NCBI GenBank assembly: GCA_963668175.1 | Contig: OY764159.1 | Span: 2,144,001 to 2,208,000, forward strand | Length of the DNA stretch: 64,000 bases | Direction of reading: 5' to 3' | DNA from: Syntrophales bacterium | GTDB taxonomy: Bacteria; Desulfobacterota; Syntrophia; Syntrophales; PHBD01 | Shown here: in pieces, positions 2 through 11,237 of the stretch | Layout of the letters: every line of letters begins with the position of its first letter | Position numbering within the stretch: position 1 is the stretch's first letter | The notes under the pieces: generated by a model | Database searches by the model: none | What the model saw: only the letters and a program-made list of their open reading frames with translations | Told to the model about the DNA's origin: nothing | Program-made: the position numbers and the translations under genes

Positions 2-892
2 GTTCGACATATCAAACAGGGCTATCTGAGCCAGTTTGATCGAAATGCGCCACAACCGACTCCGTTTGATGTTAAGTTCACCGATTCCGGCAAAACAGCC
101 ATCGTGACGGAAAACGGCAAGACATCCGTGTATAAGGCAGTTACGGGAAAGTCAAATACGACCTGGAAATATGTTCCGGTGGAGGGGGGCGGCATCGATG
201 CGGCGGTAGATGCCGGGATCTATACGGTCCAACGCGGCAATGTCCTTGGCGATATCGCAGCCAAATTTCATACCACCGTTCAACAAATCATGGAGGCGAA
301 TCCCGATATCAAGAATCCGGATTCGATCCGCCCCGGACAGCGAATCGTATTGCCGAAAAACGACCCCTCCGGCCCCGCCGACAACAAGAAGGACCCCGAT
401 CCCGACCGGCAGGGCGCGACAGACCGGGGAGGCGACAACGACCGGCAATCCCGGAACATCTCCCATGATGACGGATTTACAGTGATCGCCTCAAGCGGCG
501 GCCCGGATGTTAACGAAAACACAAGTGCTGCCGCTCCTGCCGCTGACGCGCCGGCCGGCTTTTCCGCCGATCCGTTGCGTCATGCGCTGGACGCGCTGGG
601 GGTGAAGCCCCGCGATGTGCAATTCACCCCGGCGGCGGACTACGGGAATATAAAACCGGACTCCTTCGATATGGTGGATAAGGGCACATCCGAAAAGATA
701 GGCTCTTGTTTGATGACTCCCGACGGCGGCGAGATGACCGCGGGCGACAGGAAGGTCGTGATGGACCGGATAAGCGGCAACGACATTCACCTGCAAACGT
801 ACGCCAAAAACGACGACGGAGAATATGAACTCGTTGGGACGACGCGAATCGGCGACAACGACGGGGTAACGGTGACAAGGCCGTTTGCATAA
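2..892 (+). CDS. LysM-containing protein with conserved C-terminal domain (putative effector 1); 5' end lies outside the window
   Basis: Frame is open from base 2 into ORF 104..892. LysM motif YTVQRGNVLGDIAAKFHTTVQQIMEANPDIKNPDSIRPGQRIVLP. C-terminal ~105 aa (572-892) is near-identical to those of 2594..3700 and 7897..9093. Confidence 0.85.
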   Translation, partial: VRHIKQGYLSQFDRNAPQPTPFDVKFTDSGKTAIVTENGKTSVYKAVTGKSNTTWKYVPVEGGGIDAAVDAGIYTVQRGNVLGDIAAKFHTTVQQIMEANPDIKNPDSIRPGQRIVLPKNDPSGPADNKKDPDPDRQGATDRGGDNDRQSRNISHDDGFTVIASSGGPDVNENTSAAAPAADAPAGFSADPLRHALDALGVKPRDVQFTPAADYGNIKPDSFDMVDKGTSEKIGSCLMTPDGGEMTAGDRKVVMDRISGNDIHLQTYAKNDDGEYELVGTTRIGDNDGVTVTRPFA

Positions 893-986
893 TATCGGCG
901 GGCCGACCAGCGCCGCGACGCGGCTGGGGGCGAAGCGGTCGCAACGGAAAGCAATGCCTGGGAAAGCGTCCCTGACAAGGGGACGG

Positions 987-1060
987 GTCCCCCGAATGGG
1001 GGAAGGTCCCCCGCATGGGGGAAAGTCCCCCGCATGGGGGAAAGTCCCCCGCATGGGGGA
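987..1060. repeat. Tandem array of four 19-bp palindromic units, GTCCCCCGCATGGGGGAAA
   Basis: Units start at 987, 1006, 1025 and 1044. Each forms a TCCCCC-N4-GGGGGA hairpin. Confidence 0.9.
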
Positions 1061-1113
1061 CGGTATCCTCAGAATTTCGTCAAAATTCCGACAACGGAGG
1101 TTAAAAGGTCAAT

Positions 1114-1815
1114 ATGGCGTCACATGATAACGATCCGGGAAGAAAGTACGGACGATCGAGGGAAGAAAGGGGCTGTGGATGCCGGGATGGCGGCGGCTCT
1201 CGTTCCGGCGGATGGCCTCGGTCGCAATTCGGGAAGACGATGCTGCGGGGCATGATCCTGGTCATCCTCCTCCTTTTCACACCGCAGGTCCTCATCGCCG
1301 GCGACATTGAGGATGGGTATGACGAAAACACGATCCGCCCGTCGGACATACCGGCCGACGCCCCCCGGTTTGAAGATTATCCGGCAAAGCTTTACACCGG
1401 GCGCAATGCGGCCCCGGACCTCAAAAGCCACCCGCAGTCGAGGCTGTATCGGACGCGGCTTAAAGAATGGTCGCGCGAGAAACCGAATTTCGCGGGGCAC
1501 TTCATCCTGGCCGCTTGGGGCTGTGGAACCGATTGCACACAGATAGCCATCATCGACGCGAAAACGGGGCGTATTTTTCATCCGCCCGGTGCAACTTACA
1601 ATGTCGCCGTTAACGTGCACGATGATCTGCTGCCAACTTGTGAGCATATTAGAGACAGCTGCGGATCCATTTTGCATCGTCCGGACAGCAGGCTTTTGGT
1701 TATGATCGGTCGGCCTGAAGATAGCGAAAGAGGAATCTGGTATTTTTTATGGGAAAAGAATCGCCTGGTTAAACTGCGTTTCATACCGAAACCCTACAAC
1801 TGGCATGATGATTAG
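1114..1815 (+). CDS. Secreted/periplasmic hypothetical protein (putative immunity protein, paralog A); alternative start at 1240
   Basis: Signal-peptide-like MLRGMILVILLLFTPQVLIA from 1240. PNFAGHFILAAWGCGTDC motif. Close paralog of 1856..2554. Confidence 0.8.
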   Translation: MASHDNDPGRKYGRSREERGCGCRDGGGSRSGGWPRSQFGKTMLRGMILVILLLFTPQVLIAGDIEDGYDENTIRPSDIPADAPRFEDYPAKLYTGRNAAPDLKSHPQSRLYRTRLKEWSREKPNFAGHFILAAWGCGTDCTQIAIIDAKTGRIFHPPGATYNVAVNVHDDLLPTCEHIRDSCGSILHRPDSRLLVMIGRPEDSERGIWYFLWEKNRLVKLRFIPKPYNWHDD

Positions 1816-1855
1816 GGCAAATTCACCAAGCACACGCTGATCATGGAGGAATGTT

Positions 1856-2554
1856 ATGGTATCGCATTATAAGAATCCGGGAATCAAGTGCGGACGATCA
1901 AGGAAAGAAAGGGGCTGTGAGTGCCCGGGTGGCGGCTCTCGTTCCGGCGGATGGCCTCGGTCGCAATTCGGGAAGACGATGCTGCGGATCACGATCCTGG
2001 TCATGCTCCTCCTTTTCACGCCGCAGGTCCTCATGGCCGACGACATTGCGGATGGGTATGACGAAAACACGATCCGCCCGTCGGACATACCGGCCGACGC
2101 CCCGCGGTTTGAAGATTATCCGGCAAAGCTTTATACCGGGCGCAATGCGGTGCCCGATCTCAAAAGCCACCCGAGGTCGAGGATGTATCGGACGCGGCTC
2201 AAAGAATGGTCGCGCGAGAAACCGAATTTCGCCGGGCGCTTCATCTTGGCCACTTGGGGCTGTGGAACCGATTGCACACAGATAGCCATCATCGACGCGA
2301 AAACGGGGCGCATTTTTCATCCGCCCGGTGCAACTTCCAATAGTGCCGTTAATGTGCACGATGCTCTGTTTCAACCCGGCAAGAGTATCTGGTACGGCTC
2401 CGGCGCTATCTGGTATCGGCTGGACAGCAGGCTTTTGGTTTTGATCGGCGGGCCTGAAGATAGCGAAAGAGGAATCTGGTATTTTTTATGGGAGAAGGAT
2501 CGCCTGGTTAAGTTGCGTTTCATACCGAAACCCTTCCACTGGAAAAATCCTTAA
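1856..2554 (+). CDS. Secreted/periplasmic hypothetical protein (putative immunity protein, paralog B); alternative start at 1979
   Basis: GGAGG RBS before 1856. Signal-peptide-like MLRITILVMLLLFTPQVLMA. Directly upstream of transglycosylase gene 2594..3700. Confidence 0.8.
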   Translation: MVSHYKNPGIKCGRSRKERGCECPGGGSRSGGWPRSQFGKTMLRITILVMLLLFTPQVLMADDIADGYDENTIRPSDIPADAPRFEDYPAKLYTGRNAVPDLKSHPRSRMYRTRLKEWSREKPNFAGRFILATWGCGTDCTQIAIIDAKTGRIFHPPGATSNSAVNVHDALFQPGKSIWYGSGAIWYRLDSRLLVLIGGPEDSERGIWYFLWEKDRLVKLRFIPKPFHWKNP

Positions 2555-2593
2555 CCCAAATTAACTGGACAATGTTAATCATGGAGGAATGTT

Positions 2594-3700
2594 ATGGCTT
2601 CGCATTACAATGATCCGGGAATCAAATACGGACACTCAAGGGAAAAAGGGGCTGTCGACGCCGATGTCGCGGAGAAAGTCAAACAGAAAATCGTCACCCA
2701 GGCCAGAGCCGCGCAGCGTCAGGGCGTCCCCATCACGCAAGACGATATCGCCAGGTTAGTGGCCTATGCTGATCTGGAATCAGGGTTCAATCCCGACGCG
2801 GCCAATAAGGACGAATCCCCATCCGGTGTGTTTCAAATTGCGGATGAGACCGCTAAAGACTTCTATAGTCGATTAAACGGTAAATCTTTGATCAACGGTT
2901 ACCAAGTTAAGGGCAATTACGAAGACTACAAGCGATTCGATCCCGATTCGAACATCGCCGTAGGTATCGGTGTCTACCTCGACAAGAAAAGGAAGGCGAA
3001 GTCCGACGATGTCAATAAAATATATAAACGTTGGAATCCAGGAGCCACACCGGCGGAGCAAAAGGCGCTACGGAAACTGTATGAAAAATACAAAAGCATG
3101 AAACTTTCCCTCGATGATTCCGGGAGCGACGCCGACAAAGTCGCCGAGGCGGCGGAGCGGGATTCCGGGCGGACAGCCCCGGCCGGGCAACCGGACGATA
3201 CGTATTCAACCGAAGACAGGAAGAGAAAAGACCTCGCTGCGGGAGACGACGCCGAAGCTGAGACGGCGCGAAGAGGCGACGATTCGGGCGAACGAGAGGC
3301 CGACGATTCCACGAACAATCAGGACGGCGCTTTCAAGGCTGCCGCGAACGGTTCCTCCCTCGGCATACCCGAAGCGCCATGGCGGCACGCGCTGGATGTG
3401 CTGGGCGTGAAGTTCGGCGATGTGCAATTAACCCCGGCGGAGGCGGACGAAGAGAACGAGACACCGGACTCTTTCGACATCAGAGATAACGACACAACGG
3501 AAAAAATCGGCTCTTATGCGGGAACACCCACCGGCTGCGAAATGACCGTGGGCGACAGGAAGGTCGTGATGGACCGGATAAGCGGCAACGACATTCATCT
3601 GCAAACATATGCGAAAAACGACGATGGAGATTTTGAACTCGTTGGGACGACAAGAATCGGCGACAACGACGGGGTCACGGTAAGAAGGACGTTTGTATAA
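2594..3700 (+). CDS. Lytic transglycosylase (SLT-like) domain + acidic linker + conserved C-terminal domain (putative effector 2)
   Basis: GGAGG RBS. LESGFNPDAAN (catalytic Glu), SGVFQI and FDPDSNIAVG motifs. No signal peptide. Shared C-terminal domain at 3377-3700. Confidence 0.85.
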   Translation: MASHYNDPGIKYGHSREKGAVDADVAEKVKQKIVTQARAAQRQGVPITQDDIARLVAYADLESGFNPDAANKDESPSGVFQIADETAKDFYSRLNGKSLINGYQVKGNYEDYKRFDPDSNIAVGIGVYLDKKRKAKSDDVNKIYKRWNPGATPAEQKALRKLYEKYKSMKLSLDDSGSDADKVAEAAERDSGRTAPAGQPDDTYSTEDRKRKDLAAGDDAEAETARRGDDSGEREADDSTNNQDGAFKAAANGSSLGIPEAPWRHALDVLGVKFGDVQLTPAEADEENETPDSFDIRDNDTTEKIGSYAGTPTGCEMTVGDRKVVMDRISGNDIHLQTYAKNDDGDFELVGTTRIGDNDGVTVRRTFV

Positions 3701-3797: not shown

Positions 3798-4007
3798 TTG
3801 GGCAAAACGCTGATAGGGAAGGATGAGATCAAGGCCTACACCCGCCGCTCGTGGCAGACGATCCAGGCCTGGATCGACACGGAGAACTTCCCGGCGCGGA
3901 AGATCGGGGGCATCTGGGAATCGAACAAGGACCTCGTGGACGAATGGCGCCGCAACAACATCCTCAAACGGCCGCTGGTGGGGAATTATCCAGATATCAT
4001 CAGTTGA
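3798..4007 (+). CDS. Small helix-turn-helix DNA-binding protein (AlpA/excisionase-like)
   Basis: LIGKDEIKAYTRRSWQTIQAWI...FPARKIGGIWES pattern typical of mobile-element HTH proteins. GGAGG precedes a TTG start. Confidence 0.65.
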   Translation: MGKTLIGKDEIKAYTRRSWQTIQAWIDTENFPARKIGGIWESNKDLVDEWRRNNILKRPLVGNYPDIIS

Positions 4008-4608: not shown

Positions 4609-5457
4609 CTATTTCACCGGACACTGTTCTAACTTATTTTGATGTCTCCTATACTCCCTGGGCGACATCATTTTCAATCCCTTGTGCGGATGGTTTTCAT
4701 TGTAGTCTACGAACCATCCGGGCAGTTGCTTCATGACCGTTTCGGCATCAGTCAGGATATTCAGATGAACATAATCCCTCTTGAAGGTCTTGACAAAGGA
4801 TTCGGCCATGCCGTTCGATTCCGGGCTGTAGAACGGGGTCGTGCAAACCTCAAGCCCCATCATCTGCCCAAAGCTTTTCGTTTCCCTGGCGGTGTACGCA
4901 GGACCATTATCGCTCAGCCACTGGATTCTGTGAGGCAGCCGATTGATCATACCGAAACGGGCCTCAATGGCTTCCGCCATCAAGTCCCTGACCATGTCGC
5001 CGGATACGCCCCCTGTCGTGGCTACATAACTCATGATTTCCCTGTCGCAACAATCCATGCTGAACGCTACCCGGAGACGGTCCCCATTCCAGCAGGCAAT
5101 CTCAAACGCATCGGAACACCAACGAAGATCGCTCCGTCTCGTCGTGACCTTACCCTCGTGAAGCCTTGCCGGCCTACCCGTATGCCGCTGAAGAAGCAGA
5201 TTGTGCATCTTCATGAGACGATAAATCCGTTTGGGGTTAACTCCCGGATGCCCCTGACGTTCCAGAAACCTGTTGATTCTTGCCGTTACTCTCCGATAGC
5301 CGTAACTGGGACGATTATCAATAACCTGCCTGATCAGAAGAAGATATCTGCCATCGTCGCCTCTCCTGTAATGGCGGCTTCTCGAATCGGCTTCCTTCCC
5401 TTGCCTTTCGTACTGCCGGGAACGGGAAACGTCCAGCGTATCGACAACCGTCTTCAT
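4609..5457 (-). CDS. IS3-family transposase OrfB (DDE/rve core), probably fused to OrfA by -1 frameshift
   Basis: YGYRRV, WCSD, WLSDNG and SPESNGMAESFVKTFKRDY motifs. The -1 frame is open from the A8 run to the ATG. Confidence 0.93.
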   Translation of the reverse strand: MKTVVDTLDVSRSRQYERQGKEADSRSRHYRRGDDGRYLLLIRQVIDNRPSYGYRRVTARINRFLERQGHPGVNPKRIYRLMKMHNLLLQRHTGRPARLHEGKVTTRRSDLRWCSDAFEIACWNGDRLRVAFSMDCCDREIMSYVATTGGVSGDMVRDLMAEAIEARFGMINRLPHRIQWLSDNGPAYTARETKSFGQMMGLEVCTTPFYSPESNGMAESFVKTFKRDYVHLNILTDAETVMKQLPGWFVDYNENHPHKGLKMMSPREYRRHQNKLEQCPVK

Positions 5458-5831
5458 CGGGAATCGTCCTCCGGCAACAACGGCAACCGCGAGATCAGTT
5501 TTTTTTCACGGGCAATCCGGACAGCCTCTCTTAATATCTCCACCTCCATTGTCTTTTTGCCCAGAAGACGCTCCAACTCCCGGATCTGCTTCTTCAGTTC
5601 TCTGGCTTCCGATGCAGGAACGACGCCTTCATCTGCACCAACCGCCGACAGAGCCCCTTCTTCGGCAAGCCTGCGCCAGTGGAACAGTTGGTTCGGATGG
5701 ATGTCATACTTCCGGGCTACAGCCGAGATGCTCATTCCCGGCTGCTCCGCCTCCCGCACCGTCGACTTCTTCTCGGCAGCCGACCAGCGACGTCGCCTCT
5801 GTACACCGACGATCACTTCTACAGGAACCAT
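5454..5831 (-). CDS. IS3-family transposase OrfA (HTH)
   Basis: RRRWSAAEKKSTV...SISAVARKYDIHPNQLFHWRR, then leucine-zipper-like ELKKQIRELERLLGKKTMEVEIL. Confidence 0.92.
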   Translation of the reverse strand: MVPVEVIVGVQRRRRWSAAEKKSTVREAEQPGMSISAVARKYDIHPNQLFHWRRLAEEGALSAVGADEGVVPASEARELKKQIRELERLLGKKTMEVEILREAVRIAREKKLISRLPLLPEDDSR

Positions 5832-7186
5832 AAACACCTTCTTTCTGGTTGTAGTAATATCTCTATATCTATTCCTACAACTTATTTCCAGATTCAAAGT
5901 GTCCGGTTCAATTGGGGGCTACTTCAATCAGACAAGAATGATGTCTTCAGCAAATCAGCAACACCTAATTCAAAGGCGATATTGTGAATGAGCGGTGTGA
6001 AGGGTATGTTATGCGCCTTAAGCTTTTTAGCTTGATCTGTGGTTAGCTTAATTATTCCACATTTTTTGACCTGCTCTACAAGCCTTGGAGCTTTACTATA
6101 GATTTCGTCCTGGATAAGATAAGTATGACACCACAAACCATGAGGTAATATTGAATCTGGCCCAGAACTGATTAGTGTCATTTCGTCATTCTTATAAATG
6201 AGTGAGTATGCTACTTCCTTCAAAAACCTTCTACGTAACGCATCTGACAACACGTTATATCTTGGGTTCTTATCCTGCGATAGAGCATCTATACATAGAC
6301 AATGCGGACAAACATTGCCAAAAGAAACCATCTGGACTATGTCAGATTCAATTAAAGGCAGTAATTCACAAAATACAATCAAATCATCCAAGAATTTATA
6401 GCGGAAAAAGGCCTCTAAATTCGCTGGTTTTCTATCAGCATACGCAAGTAAGTCTGTAAAATAATTCTTGATGAAAACCTTATCACTGTATAAAGCGGCA
6501 AACTGTGTCAACTCTCTAATCTTTTCAATTCGGCATGAAGGACTGGAACATGGATATGAACTTCCACCCAAAGATGGCGCTGCGGCGTGAGAGAATATCG
6601 ACGGACTGGCATTTATATTGGTATAATGTGTTATATCGGTGGATTGTTGGCAAACATCAATAATATGGCTTGCCTTCAGTTTGCGAATATACTTTATGAT
6701 TGGTTTGCCATTTCTTATCAACCCGGCATTTTCAAACAAAGCCTTAAGAGGGTGTTCCATATTCTTTTATACCTATAAATTATTATCGTGACAGCCTCGT
6801 ATATGCCCTTTATTTACCAGCTGTTAACGGAACTATGAGGCAGTTTATTGTGTGTGTCAAGAAAAAATGGACGAAATTGCTAGAACTATCATTAGATATT
6901 TCGTCGCTTTAACATATTGAGTCCACGATAATTCCGGTACGCCTACATATTTTCCCCCTTTTCCCTCGGTCAGACACCGGCGGACTTGACGCTGGCGGCT
7001 ATCCGTCAAGCGCAATAAAAGGTCATTCTTCCGCTATACGCCCGAATCGGTAAATAATCATTATATAATACTATATTTATATTGCATTAGGCCGTTTATC
7101 GTTTATAATATCAGTATAATATCCTGACATGGCCGGATGGCGAGGGGGAGTTCGTAACCGTTTGATATTTTTATGCGAGGTGCATC

Positions 7187-7891
7187 ATGAATGAAAAGAG
7201 CCGTGAAGTAAAAAGAAGCGCCGCGACGATGAGCCGGAAGGACGATCGACCGGGCATCCGGTGCGCGACGATTCGATCCGCCTGCCTTCTTTTTATGGCC
7301 CTGTTCGTTTTGGCCTGGAGTCCGGGAGCATTCGCAGCGGAACCCGGCAGCCCCGCATTGTCCCAAGATAAGGAAGGTCAAGCCGCCGGGGAGAACGCAG
7401 GCGGGGAATTCAAAAAATATCGTGCCGTATTCAGCGAGCTGGTTTGCGGAGATGTCAAGGCATTGGCGGTAAGAATACGATCAGAGGAAGACAGCTTTCC
7501 TTTGATTGAAGCTGTTGACCAGAGAATATACTTTATCAACAAGACCGGCCGGATCAAGCTTGTCAAGGATTCATGGGATAACAAGTTGAATCGAAACAGG
7601 ATTAATTCTTCGGGATATATTTATCCCGCAGTATCCTGGGATTGTACGAGAGATAAGAGAGGAAAACCTTACATCATTATTTTCTCATGGTCCGGCGGTA
7701 ATTATCGGGGAGCCGAATGGACCGAAATCTATGATCTGGATGGCAGATTGGTGGCGAGCAACTATTCAGAAAAGATAAAGAATTTTCGACGCATCAATGA
7801 TTTGTTTGACAAGAAAATAGAAAAATTAGGAATTCGTTACGATTGGAGATCTGCAAAAAAAATCAGATTTAAAGAACAAGACGGGAGGTAA
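7187..7891 (+). CDS. Secreted hypothetical protein (putative immunity protein for 7897..9093)
   Basis: Hydrophobic signal CLLFMALFVLAWSPGAFA. Stop lies 5 nt before the next ATG, with that gene's GGAGG RBS at its 3' end. Confidence 0.78.
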   Translation: MNEKSREVKRSAATMSRKDDRPGIRCATIRSACLLFMALFVLAWSPGAFAAEPGSPALSQDKEGQAAGENAGGEFKKYRAVFSELVCGDVKALAVRIRSEEDSFPLIEAVDQRIYFINKTGRIKLVKDSWDNKLNRNRINSSGYIYPAVSWDCTRDKRGKPYIIIFSWSGGNYRGAEWTEIYDLDGRLVASNYSEKIKNFRRINDLFDKKIEKLGIRYDWRSAKKIRFKEQDGR

Positions 7892-7896
7892 GCTGG

Positions 7897-9093
7897 ATGC
7901 CGAAAGAAACAAATTACAATATCTTAATCGATAAAACGCCTGGCCGTTCTGCCGGGAACAGTCGAAAAGCAGGGGCTGCTCCATACGAAGTGAAGGTGAA
8001 AGCCGTGGAAGCGATCAGGAAGTATGCAGGTCTTTATGGATTCAATGAACATCAGACCAGCGAAGTCTTGAAAATCGTGGAACACGAATCTGGATTTAAT
8101 CCAGATGCTGCGAATCCAGACACAACTGCGTCCGGACTAGGACAGATGATGAATGACACGTTTGAGCAGTATGGGCCGCGTGGTGCGAATATTTTCGATC
8201 TGGATGCCAACGCAGAGGCAACAGTCAGATACTATCAACATTGCCTGAACAAAGCCGCAGAGAAAGGACTGACCGGAGAGAAGTTGGATACAGGTGCGTA
8301 TGCGTGTTATCATGACGGCCCGTGGAATTTTAAAGCCGGTAAGGATAAAAAAGGTGCGGATATTTATAAAAAGGTCATTAAAAAATTATCCGGTAAGCCC
8401 AAGGTTAGCAGTAACGAACGCTCCTCCAGCAACTCCGACAAGGTAGCCGAGGCGACGGAACGGGATTCCGAGCGGACAGCCGCGGCTGAGCAGCCGGACG
8501 ATGCTTATTCAACCGAAGACAGGAAGAGAAAAGACCTCGCGGGAGACGACGCCGAATCTGAAACGGCGTGGAGAGGCGGAAATTCAGATCGTCGAAGCAT
8601 ACCTAATTCATGGATAGCGGATGCCGGTAACGTGCTTTCAGATGTGTCCGGAAATGCTCTTCAAAGCGCCCTCCGCGAGGCAAGAAAGCCAACGGATGTC
8701 GAATCGGCCGCGAACACGATGACGCTTCGTGAGGCGCCGACCGATTTGCTTGCCGAACCGGGTTCTCCATTGCAGCACGTAATGGATGCGCTGGGGGTGT
8801 CGTCCGGCGATGTGCATTTAACCCCTGCGGAAGCGGACGATGAGAACGAGACACCGGACTCCTTCGATATTGTGGATAAGGGCACATCCGAAAAGATAGG
8901 CTCTTGTTTGACGACACCCGGCGGCTGCGAGATGACCGCAGGCGACCGGAAGGTCGTGATGGACCGGATAAGCGGTAATGACATTCACCTGCAAACGTAT
9001 GCCAAAAACGACGATGGAGATTTTGAGCTCGTTGGCACAACGCGAATCGGCGACAACGACGGGGTAACGGCAAGAAGGCCGTTTGCGGGTTAG
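7897..9093 (+). CDS. Lytic transglycosylase (SLT-like) domain + linker + conserved C-terminal domain (putative effector 3)
   Basis: HESGFNPDAAN, SGLGQM and AYACYHDGP SLT motifs. No signal peptide. Linker shared with 2594..3700. Shared C-terminal domain at 8767-9093. Confidence 0.87.
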   Translation: MPKETNYNILIDKTPGRSAGNSRKAGAAPYEVKVKAVEAIRKYAGLYGFNEHQTSEVLKIVEHESGFNPDAANPDTTASGLGQMMNDTFEQYGPRGANIFDLDANAEATVRYYQHCLNKAAEKGLTGEKLDTGAYACYHDGPWNFKAGKDKKGADIYKKVIKKLSGKPKVSSNERSSSNSDKVAEATERDSERTAAAEQPDDAYSTEDRKRKDLAGDDAESETAWRGGNSDRRSIPNSWIADAGNVLSDVSGNALQSALREARKPTDVESAANTMTLREAPTDLLAEPGSPLQHVMDALGVSSGDVHLTPAEADDENETPDSFDIVDKGTSEKIGSCLTTPGGCEMTAGDRKVVMDRISGNDIHLQTYAKNDDGDFELVGTTRIGDNDGVTARRPFAG

Positions 9094-9667: not shown

Positions 9668-10243
9668 ATGACATCCGCTTCCGATCAAACCGTTAATACT
9701 GCGCCGGAGTCGCTCACAAGCGATCATTATACAATCTTTCATTTAATCCTCCAGCTCGCTTTTGCCGCGCTGTTATTCTTTTTGAACGAACTCGATAGAA
9801 GGCTGAATCTCTATCTGCTGCTGGTTCCGCTCCTCCTTGTCCCGGCATTAGTAGTGGTGATTATCTGGCTGACCAGCGTCATAACAAACAGCATTAGAAA
9901 GAGGTGGCGTCGTCTCGCTTCCGCCGTCATTGCACCGGTGATCATTTTTTGCCTCATGGCCTCGCTTGCTCACTGGCGGATCGATGCGGATTGGGTACGC
10001 TTTCAGGCAAACCATCGACACTATGAAAAATCGGTACAGTTCCTCAAGGGGCCGCACCCCAGACATGTTACGTGGGATTGGGGCCATACCGGAGGCGCGG
10101 CGGTCGTCTGCATTGATTACGAACTCCACTACGACGAATCCGATTTAACAAAGCTCCGAGATGGAGAGAGGAAAGGGGGCGGTATCATCAGAGTCCGCGA
10201 TTTCGGAAACCACTTCTACCTCGTTACCGCCGTCTATCAATAG
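9668..10243 (+). CDS. Hypothetical membrane protein (about 3 TM plus soluble C-terminal domain)
   Basis: Three hydrophobic segments in the N-terminal half. 191-aa ORF. Confidence 0.7.
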   Translation: MTSASDQTVNTAPESLTSDHYTIFHLILQLAFAALLFFLNELDRRLNLYLLLVPLLLVPALVVVIIWLTSVITNSIRKRWRRLASAVIAPVIIFCLMASLAHWRIDADWVRFQANHRHYEKSVQFLKGPHPRHVTWDWGHTGGAAVVCIDYELHYDESDLTKLRDGERKGGGIIRVRDFGNHFYLVTAVYQ

Positions 10244-10325: not shown

Positions 10326-11237
10326 TTATTTATGAAATAATTCAAATCTCCGCAAATGAAGATTGAGACTTCTCGCAAATCCATCGAGACCTGGAAACAA
10401 GGTCGACGGATTGACATTCATTTCATGAAGGTCATATAACGCTTCTTTATGAATATCTCTTGATATGACTATTTTCAATATCGCAACATCTCGGAAATCA
10501 AACTCTTCTAATCGGGCCGTCTCAATTTGCGTCGCATCGGCGCTTGATAATTCATCAAAAGTTATCTCAAATGCAGCGCATAGATTCTTTTCGAAGGACG
10601 ACTGTCTATTGCATGGGAATAAAAAAATACCCTGTTGCATCCAGAGACGAGTATGTTGGAGGAAAGGGTCGATTAACAAGACAGAGTTTTCACTCTCTTC
10701 TTTTGAATTCAGGCATTCGTTTGCCCTGTCTTTGTGCGCTTTGACTATTTCTCTGTATGGATGAGAGTATGGCGACATGCCGCCAATTTCTACCGAATCT
10801 ATAAGCATGTTTATGTTAATGGCCCAAACGGCCGAATCGTCCGTTGAATTTTCCATAGCAAAGAACGCTGCTATAAAGAAGGAATCCGTAAAATCCAAGA
10901 GCCTCGTACTCCCGCCGTAGTGCTGCAAGAAAGATAGCCATTCGATGCTGTTATTTAATTCCGGAAGTTTATGCTCGAAGAGATGAGCTCGACGTTGAAA
11001 TTCGCTAAGCATATACAATTCTGTATTTTGATAGTGGTATTTAGTGCATTGGTATTGCTCGGCGTCTCTCTCGAATCTCGTTGATAAAGGCCACTCTTTA
11101 TCTCCCTGGCCACGAAATGCCCAAATAGGAGCCCCGGCTTTCATGCACGAGAGAAGCTTTCCTCGGTCATTCCAGGAGTCAATTGCTATTTCACAAAATT
11201 TATGTGAATCCGTCTTCAAATGATTTCCCTTAGCCAA
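10326..11237 (-). CDS. FRG domain-containing protein
   Basis: WAFRGQ, LQHYGGSTRLLDFT and RLWMQQGIF motifs, ending in STLFPGLDGFAR. AT-rich. Confidence 0.9.
   Translation of the reverse strand: MAKGNHLKTDSHKFCEIAIDSWNDRGKLLSCMKAGAPIWAFRGQGDKEWPLSTRFERDAEQYQCTKYHYQNTELYMLSEFQRRAHLFEHKLPELNNSIEWLSFLQHYGGSTRLLDFTDSFFIAAFFAMENSTDDSAVWAININMLIDSVEIGGMSPYSHPYREIVKAHKDRANECLNSKEESENSVLLIDPFLQHTRLWMQQGIFLFPCNRQSSFEKNLCAAFEITFDELSSADATQIETARLEEFDFRDVAILKIVISRDIHKEALYDLHEMNVNPSTLFPGLDGFARSLNLHLRRFELFHK

Follow-up and report, generated by a model that had tools for sequence, protein, structure and literature searches.

Effector-start stubs ahead of tandem putative immunity genes in a Syntrophales bacterium: probable scars of recombination

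Why would the gene for a secreted protein begin with a broken copy of the start of the effector gene beside it? In the window analysed here, a 64,000-nt stretch of a Syntrophales genome (window coordinates are genome coordinates minus 2144000), two tandem partner genes, A and B, lie upstream of the effector gene E2, and each is led by such a copy, which we call a stub. We consider it likely that the stubs are scars of, and substrates for, recombination that duplicates the upstream partner gene, itself probably an immunity gene.

The effector E2 and its family

On its domain layout, E2 is one of about ten predicted polymorphic effectors that join a variable N-terminal toxin to a shared C-terminal domain and are preceded by an exported partner. 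The conserved domain, of ~108 residues, is encoded 9-10 times in the genome, every time behind an ORF for a signal-peptide or membrane protein; the effector loci map to 2.14 and 2.80 Mb. The following members fall in the window:

2..892, + strand: 3' part of effector E1, with LysM (Pfam E = 1e-14) and the C-terminal domain at 560-889
2594..3700, + strand: effector E2, 368 aa, with a conserved N-terminal segment, an SLT domain, an acidic linker and the conserved C-terminal domain
2756-3058, + strand: SLT lytic-transglycosylase domain of E2 (PF01464, aa 55-155, Pfam E = 2e-7)
3371-3697, + strand: conserved C-terminal domain of E2, from alignment
7043..7192, + strand: promoter-like U element (TTGCAT-N17-TATAAT, hexamers read by eye), ahead of partner P3
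7187-7891, + strand: secreted partner P3, of the third pair in the window
7897-9093, + strand: SLT effector E3, with the same C-terminal domain as E1 and E2 and no stub at the pair

The full E1 ORF encodes 456 aa and starts 478 nt before the window. The SLT match of E2 scores 30.8 bits against a Pfam gathering cut-off of 21.3, and its orthologues also match PF01464. Members of the SLT family carry their catalytic glutamate in an E-S motif; the corresponding pair here is E62-S63, in ADLESG, with a catalytic-type Glu that is invariant in all five aligned E2 orthologues. These orthologues retain the N-terminus, and E2 has no visible signal peptide. At the third pair, the U element is predicted to drive P3 and is 96% identical to one 8.5 kb upstream (genome coordinates 2142550-2142699 and 2151043-2151192, self-BLAST).

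Across the family effectors, Pfam recognized SLT, LysM and, weakly, Ntox44 and nothing else; the C-terminal 109 residues matched no Pfam family. The C-terminal domain is predicted to be all-beta; its model had no Foldseek match, its best VIA match (Z 6.1) was a protein of unknown function, and the ESM Atlas returned nothing usable. The family is rare: 1.84 billion proteins yielded 14 representative clusters at E <= 1e-10. Its metagenome members carry other N-terminal domains. Among 201 genomes from the order, the C-terminal domain is encoded in a single one, that of the window, and a pattern scan of species-representative genomes found no relative of it. We presume that this domain is the delivery signal.

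As to the route, the genome encodes a T6SS, including TssC (VipB, E = 5e-116), a PAAR at 156,529 and, at 160-181 kb, genes for ClpV-like, IglE_N, VipA, VasE, gp25, TssF, DotU and TssG; we infer T6SS delivery of the effectors. Profile searches of the genome with Pfam Hcp and Phage_GPD, and for the phage-type sheath PF04984, found nothing. Neither vgrG, hcp nor PAAR genes are linked to the effector loci, the effectors show no known T6SS marker domain, and the T6SS lies 2 Mb off, at 0.16-0.18 Mb. A T4SS route, which the X-Tfe-like layout had brought into question, was rejected: in the complete genome neither PF03135 (VirB4) nor PF02534 (VirD4/TraG) matched at E <= 0.001. The idea of a T9SS-type C-terminal domain was set aside, as the effectors lack signal peptides.

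Tandem partner genes and their stubs

Between E1 and E2, the window contains the following elements:

965..1113, + strand: leader common to the upstream locus and metagenome contig L022, a 19-nt hairpin repeat followed by TCGTCAAAATTCCGACAACGGAGG
1114..1196, + strand: stub A, homologous to the opening ~80 nt of E2, one G inserted at 1165
1114-1815, + strand: long ORF of copy A, 233 aa
1197..1239, + strand: partner-gene leader of A, not homologous to E2, holding a weak native Shine-Dalgarno sequence
1240..1815, + strand: copy A of the partner (putative immunity) gene, short form, encoding a 191-aa protein that has a signal peptide
1624..1688, + strand: divergent patch in copy A, 65 nt, 35-38% different from B and L022
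1840..1918, + strand: stub B with the effector's own ribosome-binding site, chimeric, with an extra G at 1907
1856-2554, + strand: long ORF of copy B, 232 aa
1979..2554, + strand: partner gene copy B, short form, 191 aa, with a family-typical central patch

An earlier note on this DNA had described tandem units of ~740 bp (1114-1855 and 1856-2593), and self-BLAST bore this out, aligning 1113-1918 with 1855-2655 at 86.6% identity over 806 nt; Tandem Repeats Finder, whose longest period was 500, did not report them for that reason. The A and B proteins are 81-82% identical, the mature 5' parts of the genes 93%, and the partner-gene leaders differ at one of 51 compared sites. Given the same stub/leader junction, the same +1 G, the 82% identity and the near-identical leader, A and B read as local paralogues of one gene. 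Within the patch at 1624-1688, B and L022 differ by 6%, and it is here that copy A has lost the family motif W.G.GA..YR. The genome contains no third partner homologue and no matching second effector, and no promoter or terminator motif was found between A, B and E2.

The AlphaFold model of copy A (pLDDT 87) had no match at E <= 0.001 in a Foldseek search of the PDB; the best wide VIA match (Z 5.5) was propeller-blade-like, with no informative fold relative, and the nearest ESM Atlas clusters were unnamed or 'lipoprotein family', without Pfam. We infer that the partner genes have an immunity function.

Alignment of the three starts confirmed the homology to the E2 start that had been noted. 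Stub A (1113-1196) matches 2593-2672 at 66 of 84 nt, and stub B (1840-1918) matches 2578-2655 at 68 of 79; the B match includes 20 identical nt, ATCATGGAGGAATGTTATGG, and the ribosome-binding sites ahead of 1856 and 2594 are indeed the same. Local scores were 73 for A (z = 30) and 101 for B (z = 34), against a highest null of 24-28 in 60 mononucleotide shuffles. A whole-genome BLAST with an 86-mer from E2 recovered the B stub only (E = 2e-19), and a more sensitive self-BLAST picked up the A stub (72 nt, 80.6%, E = 3e-11). Both stubs derive from the resident E2 and not from another effector.

The reported 1-nt insertion is likewise real: it is a G after codon 17 (1165 in A, 1907 in B), and it places the stub in frame with the downstream secreted-protein ORF. 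Programmed frameshifting at GGGAA(G)AAAGGGG was rejected, since the extra base is a fixed G in the A run of A, B and L022 and thus an ordinary indel.

Stub B is chimeric: as far as 1885 it resembles E2, and from 1888 on the stub lineage. At 23 informative sites, defined as fixed between the stub lineage (A and the L022 stub) and the effector lineage (the window and L022 copies of E2), 15 of 15 are effector-like and the next 8 of 8 stub-like. Thirteen of those 15 lie upstream of the ATG, with only two inside the ORF. Because any tandem duplication puts effector-type sequence upstream of the ATG, the case for a crossover inside the B stub, rather than at its edge, looks thin.

Recombination or retained function

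Copy number differs among related loci, a comparison that the earlier note had called for. Contig L022 carries one stub-led copy between the same leader and the E2 start, A-like in its 5' flank and stub and B-like in its 3' half; a 53,403-bp contig from a second assembly carries two, with A', B' and E2' at 99-100% identity. An assembly artefact is ruled out by this independent 53-kb contig, which holds both copies. Partner and E2 orthologues occur together on three further contigs. Among sequencing reads, run X7 contains a relative 90-95% identical that covers 1189-1542 and 2252-2757, X5 and X6 gave short pieces, and X8 had no matches. Further afield, a partner homologue was found in two of 61 relatives' genomes, one of them the window's own and the other match 40% identical. 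At 78 other partner-homologue loci, an SLT gene adjoins in only three and lies two genes off in a fourth, these four looking like close relatives of one another; most of the homologues are solitary, a point against the immunity reading.

Stubs are also present at other effector loci. They appear in five of 12 partner/effector comparisons (E1, E1b, E6, and A and B of E2) and are absent from six, and the test at the P3/E3 pair gave z = -1.1. At the first locus, the E1 stub lies ahead of its partner (69/89 nt); the effector start codon and site are gone, and its open mini-frame is a different frame. The E1b stub (97/103 nt) lies between two partner copies and forms a 34-codon mini-ORF whose stop is 3 nt before the partner ATG. 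The E6 stub (245/332 nt) sits behind a decayed first partner copy, and at E6 and E1b this first copy is still visible. The partner-stub-partner-effector topology recurs at three other effector loci in differing stages of decay. Stubs A and B correspond to 63-83 nt at the 5' end of the variable effector itself and contain no toxin domain; the stub junctions are old and common to paralogous loci. Neither a fixed two-copy arrangement nor a lack of stubs elsewhere, which the earlier note had set against its recombination idea, is what we found: L022 is single-copy and other partners are stub-led. The alignments suggest that duplication of a partner with an effector 5' end has occurred in at least three effector families, which would fit selection for more, or more varied, immunity without more toxin.

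These observations are consistent with the following course. In an old event, the first ~80 nt of E2 would have been joined ~45 nt upstream of the partner's own start. A later G insertion would have brought the stub into frame, giving the stub-partner-E2 order still seen in L022. Stub and true E2 start would then form direct repeats flanking the partner gene, and stub-A-stub-B-E2 would result if the two recombined by unequal homologous crossover at a point ~30 nt inside the coding sequence. Such a crossover would explain why copy B has the effector's own ribosome-binding site together with a chimeric stub. The stub would in turn give the gene a strong upstream translation start, at least for B, and a long-leader precursor would probably also be made. 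The proposal would not cover the origin of the first stub: simple duplication would not predict the leader that stub A and the E1 stub share. This leader (genome coordinates 2142705-2142813 and 2144953-2145099, self-BLAST) is 86-93% identical between its copies, and its hairpin repeat, 4.2 copies at 986-1064 (TRF), is confined to these two places in the genome.

Which start codon the partners use bears on whether a stub is a scar or a working part. It is unlikely, in our assessment, that the stub is kept for function, putting the partner under the toxin's strong translation start and thereby coupling immunity to toxin synthesis, with the long-leader precursor as the functional exported form. 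This could operate by in-frame fusion, as in A and B, or by termination-reinitiation coupling, for which the E1b mini-ORF and its stop close to the partner ATG would be suited. In its favour, Shine-Dalgarno pairing is strong at effector starts (-9.3 to -12.7 kcal/mol) and weak at partner starts (-4.3 to -7.2), the partner's own site reaching -4.3 to -4.5 and the short start of copy A -4.3, and the long start of copy B has an ideal ribosome-binding site. The +1 G is common to A, B and L022, and the long frame is open in all four stub-bearing sequences (A, B, P0003 and P0004), as against 33-46% of the time for a neutral lineage in simulation, which may reflect some constraint on the stub.

Other features weigh against a retained function. 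Stub residues are not conserved: stub and leader together diverge 2-4 times as much as the mature coding part (18.7% against 8.3% between A and L022, Fisher p = 0.004; p = 1e-6 for the same rate difference between B and L022; p = 0.08, not significant, for A and B on their own). Differences in the stub show no third-position excess (3, 5 and 6 by codon position), a weak test, as the mature part likewise lacks a strong one (5, 6, 10). In stub A the GGAGG lies 11-13 nt from the ATG, the E1 stub has neither effector start codon nor site, and half of the 12 comparisons have no stub at all. A stretch of 44 residues ahead of the hydrophobic core is atypical for Sec signals. Among the matches listed, 111 of 120 partner homologues are short forms (160-225 aa); the short homologues that were fetched start at or near the signal peptide, and a stub is present in only three of 17 fetched partner sequences. 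The faster divergence of stub and leader and the shortness of most listed homologues point to the signal-peptide ATG (1240/1979) as the ancestral and main partner start. The fused long ORFs are probably not ancestral gene products; the long form of copy B is probably also translated and may be its main product.

Two further accounts move the partner as a cassette. In one, which we regard as highly improbable, newly arriving partner-effector cassettes replace older ones through recombination at the effector 5' end, leaving A as immunity to a lost or foreign effector. The mirror-image layout would suit it, the divergent patch in A could stem from another allele, and orphan immunity arrays formed by displacement are documented (in the part of PMC5361080 used here). 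It is opposed by the shared junction, +1 G, leader and mature 5' part of A and B, by the descent of both stubs from the resident E2, by the absence from the genome of a third partner homologue or matching second effector, and by L022, where the single copy is already stub-led. The other, very unlikely in our view, is Campbell-type insertion: a circle of effector 5' end, leader, partner and spacer would leave a tandem duplicate and insert itself at a different effector locus through one crossover within the effector 5' end, making integrase-free cassettes. It would account for stub A and the E1 stub lying directly behind a leader that otherwise precedes an effector-type ATG, and it accords with the direct repeats flanking the partner gene and with the old, shared stub junctions. 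However, no circle, no empty site (the leader followed by an intact effector) and no inter-locus transfer was seen, and its product is the same as that of duplication followed by loss of the first copy, which E6 and E1b still display. Quite unlikely, too, is the broadest reading, in which an integrase-free cassette system uses the stubs as working parts to amplify partner genes, excise them as circles, re-insert them at effector starts and lend them the strong translation start of the toxin. The polymorphic toxin family concerned would be one not described before, and its all-beta C-terminal domain would act as a novel signal for delivery by the T6SS or another route.

Recombination that duplicates the partner remains our preferred reading. 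The earlier proposal that recombination at the effector 5' end builds up partner copies thus stands in part: the B chimera, the one-copy L022 and the stubs elsewhere speak for it, and its picture of the copies is at odds with A and B as local paralogues.

Significance and comparison with known systems

Read in this way, the locus would be a base-level record of an immunity gene multiplying beside its toxin, with a copy of the toxin's start as the crossover repeat, and one genome would keep several decay stages of the process. A second result is a very rare effector family that shares its architecture with the T4SS effectors of Xanthomonas, yet no T4SS was found in this host. Interbacterial weapons of slow-growing syntrophic anaerobes are, to our knowledge, little studied. 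If the C-terminal domain is a delivery signal, it offers a new marker for effector discovery; even otherwise, those who model effector-immunity evolution have in this locus a clean natural case. A keyword search of the literature, which cannot exclude such a report, turned up no account of duplicated upstream immunity genes headed by effector 5' stubs.

Tge/Tgi and Tse3/Tsi3 are T6SS peptidoglycan-glycosidase effectors with periplasmic immunity. The pairs here resemble them in a muramidase/transglycosylase-type effector without signal peptide, a neighbouring putative immunity protein with one, and a T6SS in the genome. They differ in having no link to vgrG, hcp or PAAR and no T6SS marker domain, and in that the conserved part is C-terminal.

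The comparisons that follow draw on parts of the papers cited. Similar in layout are the X-Tfe/X-Tfi pairs of the bacteria-killing T4SS of Xanthomonadales (Sgro et al. 2019, PMC6536674). They too have variable N-terminal toxins, many of them cell-wall hydrolases, a conserved C-terminal domain of ~110-120 residues common to every effector that a genome encodes, and an immunity gene that as a rule lies just upstream and is transcribed together with its effector. A genome carries several such pairs, and broken effector fragments are frequent. That paper also discusses alternative start codons for immunity proteins, and the part used here makes no mention of effector 5' stubs before immunity genes. 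In contrast to X-Tfe/X-Tfi, no VirB4 or VirD4 was found here and the partners are of other families. The C-terminal domain of the X-Tfe effectors is the XVIPCD; the one here is predicted to be all-beta and has no Pfam match.

The T6SS arrays of Vibrio cholerae (Kirchberger et al. 2017, PMC5361080) share extra immunity genes beside the effector, leftover effector ends and recombination at the effector gene. There, the immunity genes are downstream and of unrelated imported types, and duplication is argued against; here, upstream paralogues would have arisen by local duplication, and what is left over comes from the 5' end of the resident effector. The T7SS immunity paralogues esaG and tsaI (Garrett et al. 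2022, PMC9484751) shift in copy number and sequence by unequal homologous recombination, as proposed here, although among the paralogues themselves rather than between a stub and the effector start, and in another secretion system and phylum.

Finally, in the orphan modules of cdi/rhs loci (Poole et al. 2011, PMC3150448; Rhs C-terminal displacement is also cited within PMC5361080), a short piece of the main toxin precedes each extra module as a homology handle. Those modules pair a toxin-encoding C-terminal part with immunity behind a conserved N-terminal body, whereas here the polarity is reversed and the stub is toxin-less. The earlier note's image of mirrored cdi/rhs modules fits the layout, with its variable N-terminal toxin, conserved C-terminal domain and upstream partner, and does not extend to the origin of the modules, which do not come from displaced or imported effectors.

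Locus architecture

The gene cluster, on the + strand, is already under way where the window begins. Two tandem copies of a putative immunity (partner) gene, A and B, lie between effectors E1 and E2.

Features of the locus (window positions)
2-892, +, E1, LysM protein, 3' part
986-1064, +, leader with a 19-nt hairpin repeat, 4.2 copies (Tandem Repeats Finder)
1114-1815, +, ORF A, 233 aa
1856-2554, +, ORF B, 232 aa
2594-3700, +, effector E2, 368 aa
7897-9093, +, effector E3, with the shared C-terminal domain
3798-4007; 4609-5897 (-); 10326-11237 (-), features suggestive of a mobile island: an excisionase-like small ORF (by eye), an IS3-type transposase spread over two frames (HTH_Tnp_1, rve) and an FRG-domain protein

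Self-BLAST aligned the A and B units (1113-1918 versus 1855-2655) at 86.6% over 806 nt, bearing out the tandem ~740-bp units led by homologues of the E2 start that an earlier note had described. The 740-bp period is beyond what Tandem Repeats Finder can report. Proteins A and B share 81-82% identity.

No promoter-like or terminator-like motif was found in the A/B/E2 intervals. A promoter-like TTGCAT-N17-TATAAT, its hexamers read by eye, sits in a 150-nt AT-rich element present at genome 2142550-2142699 and window 7043-7192 in copies 96% identical. The first, 2.4 kb upstream, heads the string P1-E1-A-B-E2 (P, partner gene), the second heads P3-E3, and the related metagenome contig L022 has the same core. 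Upstream, genome 2140691-2142403 adds to the mobile-island features, with a regulator of XRE type and an ORF of 293 aa that has no Pfam match. The 19-nt unit GGGGGAAAGTCCCCCGCAT forms a 5-bp G/C hairpin, and 4.2 copies of it stand in the leader before the stub of A (a stub being a short copy of an effector 5' end). It also occurs at genome 2142750, 1,251 nt before the window, and with up to two mismatches it was found in the 4.57-Mb genome only at those two leaders; the leader of L022 is related. The repeat might serve as operator, attenuator or RNA stabiliser.

Effector and partner families

E2 carries an SLT lytic-transglycosylase domain exceeding the Pfam cut-off, with a Glu-Ser motif unchanged in 5/5 orthologues; no signal peptide was seen. 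Its last 109 residues are found at 9-10 places in the genome, three at the window start (E1, E2, E3) and six or seven at 2.798-2.821 Mb, and the eight intact copies show 62-88% identity to that of E2. The N-terminal parts before this shared domain vary (LysM with a weak Ntox44 match, SLT-like, a glycine-zipper-like segment, or no family), and metagenome members bring further N-termini, one NlpC/P60-like by eye. Among 1.84 billion proteins the domain yielded 14 representative clusters at E <= 1e-10; it was not found in 200 other genomes of the order, and a pattern scan of species representatives gave none. AlphaFold models it as all-beta (pLDDT 78), and fold searches gave no clear structural relative. 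The effector family is very narrow and, it appears, not described before. Upstream of each effector gene is an ORF whose product has a signal peptide or a membrane segment; WG repeats, TPR repeats and families without assignment are among them.

E2 of a second, near-identical assembly (P0121) differs from window E2 only in the C-terminal domain, with DGEYELLG for DGDFELVG (window 3625-3660). Other paralogues in the genome share this variant, which hints at gene conversion among the shared domains. Two further effectors are split. E5 (genome 2800189-2801355; 5189-6355 of locus L131) consists of two ORFs of 169 and 202 aa; since a 397-aa metagenome relative, P0125, spans both as one protein, E5 looks broken in this genome. 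E9 (genome 2819877-2821205), 322 aa, stops ~23 residues into the domain; a separate 77-aa frame ~180 nt further downstream encodes the remainder, which leaves the gene interrupted.

The A/B family has 219 homologues at E <= 0.001, and 111 of 120 were 160-225 aa long among the matches listed. The AlphaFold model of the partner is confident (pLDDT 87), with no informative fold match and no Atlas lead. Partner and E2 orthologues occur together on three more contigs, namely L022, a 3,349-bp contig (P0004/P0138) and a 12,722-bp contig (P0005/P0137). This co-occurrence, together with predicted export of the partner to the compartment where the SLT enzyme acts, gives good grounds for regarding the A/B product as the putative cognate immunity partner of E2. 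Outside the lineage the partner gene is mostly solitary: among 78 loci scanned for flanking ORFs, three (L046, L103, L105) have an SLT gene immediately adjacent and L102 has one two genes off, all four being apparent kin, and in two loci a gene for an Rv2525c-like, glycosidase-like protein adjoins the partner gene. In these four loci, from Duganella/Pseudoduganella-type genomes, the family member comes after a gene for a 220-aa protein that has an SLT domain and a hydrophobic segment at its N-terminus, a hint that the family may inhibit or partner lytic transglycosylases in general.

In copy A, a patch of 65 nt (1624-1688) is 35-38% off B and L022 and lacks the family motif W.G.GA..YR; it may reflect drift, a specificity change or conversion from another allele. 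Downstream of E3, window 9668-10243 encodes a 191-aa membrane protein with 21% identity (E = 0.005, single comparison) to the same-length E1 partner, and may be a distant extra partner gene.

Effector-start stubs and their origin

Stub A (1113-1196) matches the E2 start (2593-2672) at 66/84 nt and stub B (1840-1918) matches 2578-2655 at 68/79 nt; the local scores exceed those of 60 shuffles by 30 and 34 standard deviations. When an 86-mer of E2 was BLASTed over the whole genome only stub B matched; stub A was seen by more sensitive self-BLAST (E = 3e-11). The identical ribosome-binding site reported before 1856 and 2594 lies within 20 identical bases. An extra G behind codon 17, at 1165 in A and 1907 in B, takes the effector's KGAVDA out of frame and fuses the stub in frame with the downstream ORF, just as the earlier note had read it.

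At the long start of B the ribosome-binding site is ideal (-9.3 kcal/mol, 6-nt spacing) and native starts are weak (-4.3), so a long-leader precursor of B is probably made, judging from sequence. In stub A, GGAGG lies 11-13 nt from the ATG. Only 3/17 fetched homologues carry a stub (the B cluster representative, P0003 and P0004); the short forms start at or near the signal peptide, several with MLR... where the ATG of 1240/1979 sits. The long frame may be under weak constraint, as it is open in 4/4 stub-bearing sequences compared with 33-46% of the time in simulated neutral lineages.

Aligning the starts, as the earlier note had proposed, together with those of L022 exposed stub B as a chimera. 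Across stub A, the L022 stub, stub B, window E2 and L022 E2, 23 sites are fixed between stub and effector lineages; stub B is effector-like at 15/15 up to window 1885 and stub-like at 8/8 from 1888 on. Thirteen of the 15 precede the ATG, in a stretch that every tandem duplicate would have in effector-like form, and only two sites plus one polymorphic site place the switch within the ORF. Such a chimera is what one would expect if the E2 start on one chromosome copy had crossed over unequally with an older stub on the other.

Copy number also varies among related loci. L022 has a single stub-led copy, with the same hairpin leader on one side and an E2-type start on the other; in flank and stub it is closer to A, in the 3' half closer to B. 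The second assembly holds both copies, which rejects an assembly artefact. Between A and L022, stub plus leader differ by 18.7% versus 8.3% in the mature part (p = 0.004; p = 1e-6 for B versus L022, p = 0.08 for A versus B). Stub changes by codon position (3, 5, 6) lack a third-position excess, and E2 orthologues retain MASHY.DPG.KYG.SREKG. E2 sides with one of A/B at most positions where they differ, the pattern that drift of both stubs away from an E2-like source would leave.

Stubs precede other partner genes as well. Among 12 partner/effector comparisons, five gave a significant stub, the two of E2 included, and six did not; the P5/E5b match came from cross-matching C-terminal domains and is hence no stub. 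The E1 stub, before a membrane partner (genome 2142815-2142903; 69/89 nt), has lost the effector start codon and ribosome-binding site. The E1b stub (2797159-2797261; 97/103 nt) keeps the effector's ribosome-binding site and lies between two partner copies, the first intact (184 aa) and stubless, the second, effector-proximal membrane partner (2797285-2797862) frameshifted into ORFs of 123 and 129 aa; the stub forms a 34-codon mini-ORF whose stop falls 3 nt before the partner ATG. The E6 stub (2801715-2802037; 245/332 nt) stands behind a decayed, frameshifted first partner copy. The order partner, effector 5' piece, partner, effector is what one would expect of a tandem duplication whose right boundary falls within the effector. 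Duplications of this kind increase the dosage of the partner and leave that of the toxin unchanged.

We therefore consider it likely that the stubs are recombination scars formed by unequal crossover. The first junction, common to A, B and L022, goes beyond what one duplication explains: stub A and the E1 stub each come immediately after the same leader. Either the re-insertion, Campbell-type, of an excised unit or the loss of an earlier first copy would fit this junction.

Comparison with known systems

The Xanthomonadales X-Tfe/X-Tfi pairs combine a variable N-terminal toxin and a shared ~120-residue C-terminal signal with a co-transcribed upstream immunity gene (PMC6536674). This locus shares that layout. 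Unlike those pairs, it lies in a genome where the defining T4SS was not found, and its C-terminal domain, which matched no Pfam family, may be unrelated. A T6SS cluster lies at 160-181 kb of the genome, which also carries a PAAR gene; searches for a phage-type sheath, VirB4 and VirD4 found none, and the Pfam Hcp and Phage_GPD models had no match.

Vibrio cholerae (PMC5361080) and cdi/rhs orphans (PMC3150448) offer known cases of surplus immunity genes accompanied by remnants of effector ends. Those extras are located downstream, belong to foreign types and result from displacement, whereas here they are upstream paralogues. Of the earlier note's model, recombination at the effector 5' end gains from the chimeric stub B, the single copy in L022 and the recurrence at other loci, and the mirror-image layout stands; the reading as orphan modules that displacement left behind does not hold. 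For T7SS, unequal recombination of tandem immunity paralogues is described (PMC9484751). A keyword search of the literature found no description of effector-start stubs leading immunity genes, which is weak evidence of absence. Extra immunity genes and unequal recombination are thus known already; what seems new here is upstream paralogues probably arising from crossover of an effector-start stub with the effector itself.
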